Assembly: GCA_934182605.1 (NCBI GenBank)
Contig: CAKPRQ010000002.1
Span: 44,361 to 108,360 of the forward strand
Origin: an uncultured Clostridia bacterium
GTDB taxonomy: Bacteria > Bacillota > Clostridia > TANB77 > CAG-508
Reading direction: 5' to 3'
Length of the DNA: 64,000 nucleotides
Each line of letters opens with the position of its first letter. The stretch's first letter is position 1. Below are positions 17,282 to 17,509 of the stretch, in pieces. The notes beneath the pieces are model-generated. The model was not told the DNA's origin and made no database searches. It saw nothing but the letters and a program-made list of their open reading frames with translations. A program made the position numbers and the translations under genes.

Positions 17282-17509
17282 TTATAAACTATTATTAATT
17301 TCTAATTGATTATCAACATAGTTCATTAATTGTTTTAATAATTGATTTTCTTGTTCTGCAGAAACTTCATATTTATTTGCAGCATCCCTTGTACTATTGA
17401 ATAAACCATTACCATCTACAACTGCTGCTATAGCAACACCTGCTAAGATTAACATTACAACTACTGTAATTACTAATGCAACTAATGTTATACCTTTTTG
17501 TCCTTTCAT
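17282..17509 (-). CDS. minimal type IV pilin-like protein (75 aa) with an atypical N-terminus G|ITLVA that lacks Glu+5
   Basis: MKGQKGITLVALVITVVVMLILAGVAIAAVV... The N-terminal ~50 aa are nearly identical to the N-terminus of the 36130..37332 protein. It is followed by a terminator. Confidence 0.6.
   Translation of the reverse strand: MKGQKGITLVALVITVVVMLILAGVAIAAVVDGNGLFNSTRDAANKYEVSAEQENQLLKQLMNYVDNQLEINNSL

Follow-up and report, generated by a model that had tools for sequence, protein, structure and literature searches.

Pilin-like proteins without Glu5 probably mark a genuine type IV pilus lineage of Clostridia with a hydrophobic, archaeal- or Tad-like core

According to two reviews and a cryo-EM study of 2023, the glutamate at mature position 5 (Glu5) hardly ever varies in bacterial type IV pili (T4P) or is even "absolutely conserved" there, and the roles ascribed to it include a salt bridge to the neighbouring N-terminus, N-methylation, homopolymer assembly and recruitment to the platform (PMC4471445; PMC10191384; PMC10710030). 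Cleavage of the prepilin does not need Glu5, and in the bacteria studied, Glu5 mutants fail to form homopolymers (PMC4471445). What pilin N-methylation is for has been called a mystery for over 40 years (PMC10191384). Archaeal pilins are frequently devoid of Glu5, and the Tad pilus has no Glu5 salt bridge, a continuous helix without Pro22 and an archaeal-like packing (PMC10710030). Very short pilins are represented by the Tad/Flp pilins of 40–60 aa and by Geobacter PilA with 65 aa (PMC10710030), and modular pilins are known from S. sanguinis (PMC6916266; PMC8179133). A keyword search of the literature returned no description of Glu5-less bacterial major pilins, and a full-text search on the motif strings found no paper.

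Here we consider a 75-aa prepilin-like protein encoded in a 64-kb stretch of DNA from an uncultured Clostridia bacterium, which was analysed as a whole and is referred to as the window (Table 1). Our preferred reading, to which we give a probability of roughly 0.6, is that this protein is the major subunit of a T4P lineage in uncultured, very AT-rich gut Clostridia, in which G|ITL(V/I)A has replaced G|FTLIE as the class III signal consensus (the bar marks the predicted cleavage site). Judged from sequence, this would probably be a genuine Clostridia T4P lineage, Glu5-less and with a hydrophobic core of the archaeal or Tad type.

The protein, MKGQKGITLVALVITVVVMLILAGVAIAAVVDGNGLFNSTRDAANKYEVSAEQENQLLKQLMNYVDNQLEINNSL, begins with MKGQKG|ITLVALVIT…, in which a short, hydrophilic and basic leader with a terminal Gly precedes an uncharged stretch of 25 residues (7–31 of the precursor). 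We regard the open reading frame as a genuine gene, because 823 homologues are found at E ≤ 1e-3, most of them 69–80 aa long. Its AlphaFold2 model (pLDDT 85.5) consists only of helices 3–31 and 36–74, with no strands and no trace of the globular alpha-beta head of type IVa major pilins, and a Foldseek search of the PDB with this model gave no match. Within alpha1 there is no Pro, and Gly occurs only at mature position 18. An earlier note on this DNA had called the protein a minimal and extremely small pilin; minimal it is, the model showing alpha1 and one further helix, but its size is not extreme beside the Tad/Flp pilins and Geobacter PilA (PMC10710030). One tryptic peptide of the protein is YEVSAEQENQLLK. 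No source names are on record for the proteins. A sequencing or annotation artefact was considered and rejected, as the same or near-same genes occur on independent metagenome contigs and the reading frame is kept across hundreds of diverged homologues.

Table 1. Features of the pilus locus and of the distant paralogue, in window coordinates
Feature	Position	Strand	Remarks
PilC-type platform protein, 449 aa	11829..13178	-	Pfam T2SSF 7.7e-25, two stretches
PilT-type retraction ATPase, 363 aa	13200..14291	-	Pfam T2SSE 2.8e-41
PilB-type extension ATPase, 542 aa	14306..15934	-	Pfam T2SSE 9.5e-100, MshEN 1.7e-5
Minor pilin-like protein, 145 aa, class III signal KG|YVAAD	15953..16390	-	Asp at +5
PilD-like protein, 249 aa	16397..17146	-	PF06750 at 2e-28, no PF01478
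Terminator-like hairpin, core 17228-17249, then UUUAUUUU	17216..17261	-	between pilin and PilD-like gene
75-aa prepilin-like protein	17282..17509	-	ATG start; mature length 69 aa
Glu54 codon (mature Glu48)	17348..17350	-	helix 2
Ala11 codon (mature +5)	17477..17479	-	Glu there in canonical bacterial pilins
Leader peptide MKGQKG	17492..17509	-	predicted prepilin-peptidase site after Gly6
Shine-Dalgarno AAAGGAGGG	17517..17525	-	7 nt 5' of pilin ATG
Single-pass membrane protein, about 140 aa	17573..17995	-	position kept in all clusters
Single-pass membrane protein, 231 aa	18011..18706	-	position kept in all clusters
PilM-PilN-like fusion, 550 aa	18703..20355	-	Pfam PilN 1.1e-3, below cut-off, residues 476-538
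400-aa paralogue (…RRQEG|ITLVALVITVVVMLILAGVAIAAIVDGNGLFN…) fused to FGE-sulfatase-like domain	36130..37332	-	candidate modular pilin

The placement of the gene inside a T4P cluster, proposed in the earlier note, is confirmed by the adjacent PilB, PilT, PilC and PilD-like genes. The order PilMN-like, ~230 aa, ~140 aa, pilin, PilD-like, D/E5 minor pilin, PilB, PilT, PilC recurs in 22 clusters, and in 22/22 a small family member occupies the major-pilin position next to pilD. The same operon was found at loci L001–L005, L008, L010, L014, L019, L020, L022 and L028, at the further loci L037, L047, L051, L067, L079, L082 and L083, and around three members just 45–55% identical to the 75-aa query. 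The organisms involved are all uncultured. The PilM-PilN-like fusion is the conserved first gene; the 231-aa protein, for which Pfam and NCBIfam gave no match, is possibly PilO-like, and the protein of about 140 aa has a tail that is acidic and then N/G/S-rich. The minor pilin-like protein (…NSNKG|YVAAD) does carry Asp at +5, as had been claimed, and is the sole pilin of the window's cluster with an acidic residue there. Its orthologue directly after the PilD-like gene has D or E at +5 in 22/22 clusters, exactly one such minor pilin being kept per cluster.

The terminator that the earlier note had assigned to the 75-aa gene was recovered, by scan and RNAfold, as a terminator-like hairpin with a folding energy of −17 kcal/mol. 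A strong hairpin lies in the same pilin–pilD spacer in 15/15 orthologous clusters, where the sequences are unrelated. This positional conservation and the strong Shine-Dalgarno fit a highly expressed major subunit, and it is from gene position, ribosome-binding site and hairpin that the 75-aa protein is presumed to be that subunit. In C. difficile, a c-di-GMP riboswitch lies upstream of pilA1. An Rfam scan of positions 11500–21000, for such a riboswitch among others, gave nothing at E ≤ 1.

The earlier note had asked whether Ala at +5 is kept among relatives, and it is: 98–100% of 367 aligned members have it, as do 102/105 ORFs of the related loci (the others V in 2 and S in 1, none acidic), 120/120 small homologues and 136/137 representative matches, again with none acidic. 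Gly at −1 is found in 104/105 locus ORFs and 98–100% of the aligned members, Ile at +1 in 105/105 ORFs, and Ile1, Thr2 and Leu3 are invariant in the family alignment. The family profile matches 32,282 cluster representatives (of 50%-identity clusters) at E ≤ 1e-3 and 22,016 at E ≤ 1e-10, and the matches run from position 1 to about 70, also in long proteins. Ala5 is a hallmark of a huge family and not of two paralogues; in this G|ITL(V/I)A family, the 75-aa protein represents the two-helix module in its bare form. Among the charged residues of the mature module, Glu48 in helix 2 alone is strongly conserved (93% of small and 94% of long members); as precursor Glu54, it appears to belong to a conserved stripe 43-47-50-54-58-61-65.

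Two paralogues in the window do share GITLVA, as first noticed; the back-translated pattern occurs exactly twice (17478–17494 and 37280–37296), with 0 expected from shuffles. The second copy lies in the gene of the 400-aa paralogue, whose C-terminus matches Pfam FGE-sulfatase at 1.9e-6. Housekeeping genes surround this gene. Throughout the family, longer paralogues carry the module N-terminal to FGE, RCC1, fn3, LRR/PKD or dockerin domains; lengths above 100 aa are found in 165 of the 367 aligned members, and there are often several passenger-fused genes per locus. Fusion of the module to so many extracellular domains, in so enormous a family, also speaks for a pseudopilus or surface-display machine, in which the 75-aa protein would form a short wall-spanning fibre, comparable to the type II secretion endopilus or the Com pilus, that mainly exports or presents the passenger-bearing paralogues (FGE, RCC1, fn3, LRR, dockerin). 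The minimal machinery with its few minor pilins points the same way, as does a second C. perfringens T4P gene set for which a link to matrix-protein secretion has been reported (10.1101/2024.11.04.621531). On the other hand, every cluster has the PilT retraction ATPase that is typical of dynamic T4a pili, and modular pilins are equally compatible with a true pilus (PMC6916266); we consider a display machine unlikely.

The processing enzyme raises a further question. In the PilD-like protein, PF06750 (A24_N_bact) is covered over 84/84 profile positions and the Zn-finger N-domain is intact, with C40, C43, C65 and C68 invariant, and the C-terminal 6-TM part retains GIDKE and is without GxGD, which holds the second catalytic Asp. 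The first Asp of the family, D126, is D in 95% and E in 5%; GxGDxK occurs in 0/110 relatives, no conserved acidic residue follows position 133, and PF01478 is matched by none of 16/16 orthologues (E ≤ 1) and none of the top 120 homologues. An AlphaFold2 model (pLDDT 90.3) shows 8 TM helices, and phmmer against PDB sequences gave no match. No canonical A24 peptidase was found by tblastn and motif scans in the window, and 1.31 Mb of related loci yielded one only, a canonical stand-alone Peptidase_A24 in a related MAG (L071), 5 kb from a G|ITLIA gene; a homologue search with this peptidase returned relatives at ≥90% identity only. When the PilD-like profile was compared with it by hhalign, GIDKE was placed over IDYKMQIIPN, at a probability of 0.4% that makes this at most a hint. 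Our literature search found no description of a PilD-type protein in which the N-domain is retained but the peptidase is degenerate.

The missing catalytic Asp and the missing Glu5 both favour the view that the 75-aa protein is no pilin at all, its G|ITL(V/I)A segment being an uncleaved N-terminal signal-anchor and the D5 145-aa protein the only true pilin. To these may be added the score of Pfam N_methyl (PF07963/IPR012902), which aligns to the 75-aa protein over profile positions 1–27/27 and at 20.6 bits falls slightly below the gathering threshold of 21.2, and the label "hypothetical protein" given to a family member in NCBI sources. However, the same cut-off is passed by cluster pilins of other species (22.0 bits at L037, 22.4 bits at L051), and a plain anchor needs no invariant Gly-1, Ile1, Thr2 and Leu3 in the exact canonical register. 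The position beside pilD in all 22 clusters likewise argues against a mere anchor, and the D5 protein, which lacks both a terminator and a spacer of its own, stands at the usual minor-pilin position. A signal-anchor is, in our judgement, distinctly improbable.

As to the register, ITLVA matches the canonical G|FTLIE residue for residue, and the residue at +5 after the Gly is Ala (Ala11 of the precursor), not an acidic one, so that the absence of Glu5 was correctly read. The first acidic residue is mature Asp26 (Asp32 of the precursor), so that moving the cleavage site to a nearby register would not bring an acidic residue to +5. That a different register or processing site might restore one, as the earlier note had suggested, is extremely improbable, since precursor residues 7–31 hold no Asp or Glu, here or across the family, the D/E5 minor pilin of the same operon shows the canonical register G|xxxx(D/E), and an N-terminus at precursor residues 27–28 would delete the whole hydrophobic helix. 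The evidence favours the other option then raised, a non-canonical assembly interface. That losing Glu5 would be mechanistically unusual is in agreement with the literature (PMC4471445; PMC10191384; PMC10710030), and since the Glu5 mutants studied in bacteria form no homopolymers (PMC4471445), a major pilin without Glu5 needs a different interface.

The preferred reading, that of a T4P lineage with a changed signal consensus, has behind it as direct observations the sequence features, conservation, synteny, family size and missing GxGD, and assembly might proceed as follows. The prepilin would enter the membrane via residues 7–31 and be cut after Gly6 by an A24 aspartic peptidase, probably a canonical stand-alone enzyme encoded elsewhere, as in the related MAG, and the PilD homologue, whose Zn-finger N-domain is intact, may serve only in the methylation or escort of pilins. 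Polymerisation of the mature 69-aa pilin would fall to PilB and PilC together with the PilMN-like and ~230-aa proteins, and its retraction to PilT. Because the pilin has no Glu5, Pro22 or Gly14, alpha1 should remain a continuous helix with purely hydrophobic packing, of the kind found in archaeal and Tad pili, and the amphipathic helix 2 would be the fibre surface. Glu48, presumably buried, may take over from Glu5 as a polar or charge-neutralising contact, possibly together with the invariant Thr9; this role is suggested by the conservation pattern of Glu48. For the single D/E5 minor pilin, priming of assembly and docking onto the platform are possible roles, and the fibre would display the longer paralogues (FGE, RCC1, fn3, LRR/PKD, dockerin) as modular pilins.

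A bolder version is possible, if doubtful as a whole. It holds that at least 22,000 50%-identity subunit clusters of an undescribed filament lineage assemble without Glu5, the polar contact having moved to buried Glu48 and the D/E5 minor pilin acting as primer or adaptor, and that a peptidase-dead PilD, reduced to its Zn-finger/methylase domain, works with a separate A24 peptidase devoid of the N-domain. If so, the lineage would amount to a natural experiment in which cleavage, N-methylation and Glu5-dependent docking are separated from one another. More generally, a large natural family of Glu5-less pilins would mean that the bacterial machinery may not strictly require Glu5. The family combines standard PilB/PilT/PilC, a methylase domain in a protein lacking a catalytic Asp and exactly one D/E5 minor pilin, and thereby offers defined variants for probing the roles of Glu5 and of methylation. 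It also represents a large unannotated class of surface proteins of gut Clostridia, labelled hypothetical and lying under the Pfam threshold, whose passenger domains point to adhesion, or to interaction with carbohydrates or the host, as possible functions.

Among known systems, canonical T4a pilins of monoderm Clostridia and Streptococcus (C. difficile PilA1, R. albus GP25, S. sanguinis PilE1/PilE2) share with the 75-aa protein a short basic leader with Gly, Thr2 and Leu3, and a hydrophobic alpha1N of roughly 21–25 residues; canonical T4a systems likewise have PilB, PilT, PilC, PilM/N/O-type and PilD-type genes nearby and modular pilins with adhesion-type domains alongside (PMC6916266). The differences are Ala5 for Glu5, Ile1 for Phe1, the lack of Pro22 and Gly14, one extra helix only instead of an alpha-beta head, and a PilD homologue without GxGD. 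Compared with PilD (A24A) itself, the cluster protein likewise has a four-Cys N-domain and a GID context around the first Asp, and eight TM helices are predicted for it, but there is neither a PF01478 match nor the second Asp of GxGD (110/110 relatives); the natural variants TadV and FlaK lack the methylase domain, whereas this protein shows the converse. Geobacter sulfurreducens PilA also keeps Glu5. It is a truncated T4a-type pilin of similar size (65 aa) that has a short leader and Phe1, both hallmarks of T4a pilins (PMC10710030), in contrast to Ile1 and Ala5 of the 75-aa family.

Tad/Flp (type IVc) pilins, e.g., Caulobacter PilA (45 aa mature), are also very small and all-helical with no globular domain, and both they and the 75-aa family lack Pro22, so a continuous helix is expected. 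Unlike this family, Flp pilins retain Glu5-Tyr6 and the Flp motif (G|xxxxEY), and Tad systems use TadA/TadB/TadC and a TadV peptidase without the N-domain and have no PilT, whereas PilB/PilT/PilC/PilMN-like proteins are encoded here; with its motif ITLVAL and with PilB, PilT and PilC present, the 75-aa protein does not classify as a Flp/Tad pilin. Archaeal pilins and archaellins resemble it in a class III signal peptide that often lacks Glu5 and in a hydrophobic, unmelted alpha1 (PMC4471445; PMC10710030), but they go with PibD/FlaK peptidases, archaeal ATPase and platform proteins and Ig-like globular domains, whereas the genes of the window are of the bacterial T4a type and the 75-aa family has the bacterial-consensus Gly-1, Thr2 and Leu3. 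Finally, the tip minor (pseudo)pilins of the GspK/PilK class are bacterial, pilin-like and naturally without Glu5 (PMC10191384). In known systems, that class supplies one low-abundance Glu5-less cap among Glu5-bearing pilins; the present locus is the inverse, with a presumed major pilin and about 100% of its paralogues lacking Glu5 and one minor pilin keeping D/E5.

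The loss of Glu5, which an earlier note had described for two paralogues in the window, is confirmed and, as judged from sequence, extends to a large family of bacterial pilin-like proteins. The open reading frame of the 75-aa pilin proved correct in coordinates, strand and ATG start, and a Shine-Dalgarno sequence (AAAGGAGGG) lies 7 nt 5' of the ATG. A back-translated GITLVA pattern occurs at exactly two sites in the 64-kb window (17478-17494 and 37280-37296), and in none of the dinucleotide-preserving shuffles of the window. The second copy opens the pilin-FGE fusion, which over its first ~45 residues barely differs from the 75-aa pilin, so the N-terminus is indeed common to the two paralogues. 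An AlphaFold2 model (44-sequence alignment, mean pLDDT 85.5) places helices at residues 3-31 and 36-74; the protein therefore consists of alpha1 and one more helix, in agreement with its description as a minimal pilin.

A search of 5.8 billion proteins returned 823 homologues of the 75-aa pilin at E<=1e-3; the best 120 of these are mostly 69-80 aa long and all carry (K/R/Q/N)G|ITLVALVIT… at the predicted cleavage site (marked by the bar). A profile scan with one genome per species confirmed 391 relatives. When 1.84 billion cluster representatives were searched exhaustively with the profile, 32,282 matched at E<=1e-3 and, with the limit tightened to E<=1e-10, 22,016. We kept 79 loci, all from uncultured Clostridia-type MAGs (guts of human, rabbit, chicken, sheep and termite). 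Their 105 family reading frames have Gly at -1 in 104 cases and Ile at +1 in all; at +5, 102 have Ala, 2 Val and 1 Ser, with no acidic residue among them. We saw no canonical G|FTLIE-type pilin among the reading frames of the loci. Whether Ala at +5 is conserved in relatives, a question raised by the earlier note, is answered by 367 aligned members (202 of them no longer than 100 aa, 165 above that length), in which Ala5 reaches 98-100%. One family member bears the source name 'hypothetical protein', and seven others have none on record; literature searches found no paper with the motif or describing Glu5-less pilins of this kind.

Long proteins, too, match the family profile from position 1 to about 70, so the 75-aa protein represents a conserved two-helix module with nothing attached to it. 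Passenger domains behind the module include FGE-sulfatase (in the window), RCC1 repeats, fn3, BspA-type LRR plus PKD, and dockerin. Three or four tandem module paralogues lie inside a single 20-kb locus in L024, L056, L016, L021 and L078, with a dockerin domain on one of them (L024:10001-10702). A 706-aa protein from the exhaustive search, P0257, has two module copies, at residues ~9 and ~392, and is probably a pair of tandem paralogues joined by read-through or gene-calling error. The module also stands on long proteins of viral-class IMG/VR contigs (L086:5980-7101, L087:5968-6552, L091:27-1184), so the same G|ITL(V/I)A signal may also serve phages or prophages that infect these bacteria.

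Features of the pilus operon and of other genes in the window
Feature	Position	Strand	Remarks
PilM/PilN-like fusion, 550 aa	18703-20355	-	weak PilN match
231-aa membrane protein	18011-18706	-	without family match
~140-aa membrane protein	17573-17995	-	without family match
75-aa pilin	17282-17509	-	75 codons, ATG start, MKGQKGITLVALVITVVVMLILAGVAIAAVVDGNGLFNSTRDAANKYEVSAEQENQLLKQLMNYVDNQLEINNSL
Terminator-like hairpin	core 17228-17249, extended stem 17216-17261	-	-17 kcal/mol, then UUUAUUUU on the coding strand
Second, AT-rich hairpin	17150-17210	-	long
PilD-like protein, 249 aa	16397-17146	-	PF06750
D5 minor pilin, 145 aa	15953-16390	-	…NSNKG|YVAAD…, Asp at +5
PilB, 542 aa	14306-15934	-	T2SSE 9.5e-100
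PilT, 363 aa	13200-14291	-	T2SSE
PilC, 449 aa	11829-13178	-	T2SSF
Dodecin gene and spoVAC-spoVAD-spoVAEB	20679-22817	+	divergent, adjoin the pilus operon
Replic_Relax-family protein	22862-23800	-	
AAA-ATPase_like (PF09820) plus PDDEXK_9 nuclease protein	33907-35589	-	just downstream of the pilin-FGE fusion
Pilin-FGE fusion, 400 aa	36130-37332	-	C-terminus matches Pfam FGE-sulfatase, 1.9e-6
TraG/TrwB-type coupling protein homologue	40991-43312	-	

The whole pilus operon recurs with the same gene order in 19 of the first 83 loci, and identical operons lie on independent metagenome contigs. Three more small members, 45-55% identical to the query, sit in the same operon in assemblies looked up independently. 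The pilin slot of some species is filled by one or two longer proteins, pilins of 140-180 aa that begin with the family N-terminus. The window (G+C 26.9%) is chromosomal DNA of a spore-forming Firmicute, because it contains housekeeping genes (RNase J, LeuRS, IF3) together with spoVA genes; L001-L003 and L092, which is more distant, share the dodecin/spoVA neighbourhood. The Replic_Relax and TraG/TrwB-type genes may be leftovers of an integrated conjugative element.

We read the system, with a probability of roughly 60%, as a type IV pilus built from an Ala5 pilin with a non-canonical core, all of whose functional steps we infer. PilB and PilC would polymerise the pilin, helix 2 would form the fibre surface, and the long module paralogues would be displayed as modular pilins. 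A short pseudopilus or a surface-display machine is conceivable, and we regard it as a doubtful but serious alternative.

The pilin was claimed to have its own terminator, and a terminator-like hairpin does follow it. A strong hairpin lies in the pilin-to-PilD-like spacer in 15/15 orthologous clusters; its retention despite unrelated sequences is good evidence for a functional structure. The second hairpin, located between the terminator-like one and the Shine-Dalgarno sequence in front of the PilD-like gene, is also present in L005, the closest relative, and may be a read-through or processing element; for the entire spacer, the folding energy is -41.5 kcal/mol.

The product of the supposed pilD gene is no standard prepilin peptidase. 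The protein matches PF06750 only (2e-28, full length of that N-terminal domain family), with no match to Peptidase_A24 (PF01478) even at E<=1; this domain is likewise absent from 16/16 orthologues scanned singly and, among 380 homologues, from the domains precomputed for the best 120. Among 110 aligned full-length relatives, the four Zn-finger Cys are invariant and the GIDKE motif is kept (D126 95% Asp and 5% Glu, E128 100%), GxGDxK with the second catalytic Asp occurs in none, and no acidic residue is conserved past position 133. A related MAG encodes a 250-aa stand-alone canonical peptidase without the N-domain (L071:964-1716(+), CALXZZ010000075.1; PF01478 2e-18; motifs IDYKMQIIPN and GFGDVKL). 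Its gene has Xaa-Pro aminopeptidase and efp as neighbours, with a G|ITLIA gene 5 kb away. This arrangement suggests that peptidase and N-domain functions are divided between two genes. We expect an A24 peptidase, whose gene is probably located elsewhere, to cut the prepilin behind Gly6; the PilD-like protein could have a methylase-only or chaperone role. That the 75-aa protein is instead an uncleaved membrane anchor, with the D5 protein the only true pilin, seems unlikely to us.

The gene after the PilD-like gene has, in 22/22 clusters, a class III signal with Asp or Glu at +5 (e.g., KG|VTTAD, RG|FTAVD, KG|FTAID, GG|YSGIE, KG|ITGAD, KG|ATLTD, KG|ILQID), and the Asp earlier read in the window's copy is borne out. 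There is exactly one such minor pilin per cluster, of ~135-165 aa (297-320 aa in two clusters), and the other pilin-like proteins carry Ala. It would prime assembly or dock on the platform. Because all 22 keep D/E5, the operon follows the canonical frame, G|xxxx(D/E), within which the major-slot pilin carries Ala. A shifted register or processing site, one of two explanations offered in the earlier note, is contradicted by this frame and by the lack of any acidic residue at precursor positions 7-31, and is highly improbable; the other was a non-canonical assembly interface, and the assembly chemistry is indeed probably non-canonical.

Because Glu5, Pro22 and Gly14 are all absent, the alpha1 core of the proposed Ala5 pilus would be continuous and purely hydrophobic; Thr15 (mature Thr9) in alpha1 is invariant. 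Among charged residues of the mature module, strong conservation is seen at Glu54 alone (mature Glu48; codon 17348-17350(-)), which is present in 93-94% of small and long members alike in the 367-member alignment. Its position within a conserved, mostly hydrophobic helix 2 stripe (43-47-50-54-58-61-65) suggests that it faces a partner helix, and it may stand in for Glu5 as a buried polar or charge-neutralising contact.

Archaeal and Tad pili solved by cryo-EM have a continuous hydrophobic core like that proposed here, and Tad Glu5 forms no salt bridge (PMC10710030). Engineered Glu5 mutants in model bacteria gave no homopolymers (PMC4471445), so the interface in an Ala5 pilus would have to differ. 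Glu5-less bacterial subunits known so far are single tip minor pilins (PMC10191384); whereas in canonical systems the tip subunit alone lacks Glu5, the G|ITL(V/I)A clusters are the inverse, with one minor pilin keeping D/E5. As far as sequence goes, the family is a counter-example to the textbook invariance of Glu5 in bacterial pilins. It also provides a natural system, albeit in uncultured hosts, for telling apart the roles of Glu5, cleavage and methylation. Tad/Flp pilins and Geobacter PilA resemble the 75-aa pilin in size, and archaeal pilins in lacking Glu5, but motifs and machinery differ in each case. In its working, the system comes closest to the monoderm T4a pilus with modular pilins of S. 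sanguinis and Clostridia (PMC6916266), from which it departs in two defining features: its pilin lacks the acidic +5 residue, and its PilD homologue the second catalytic Asp.
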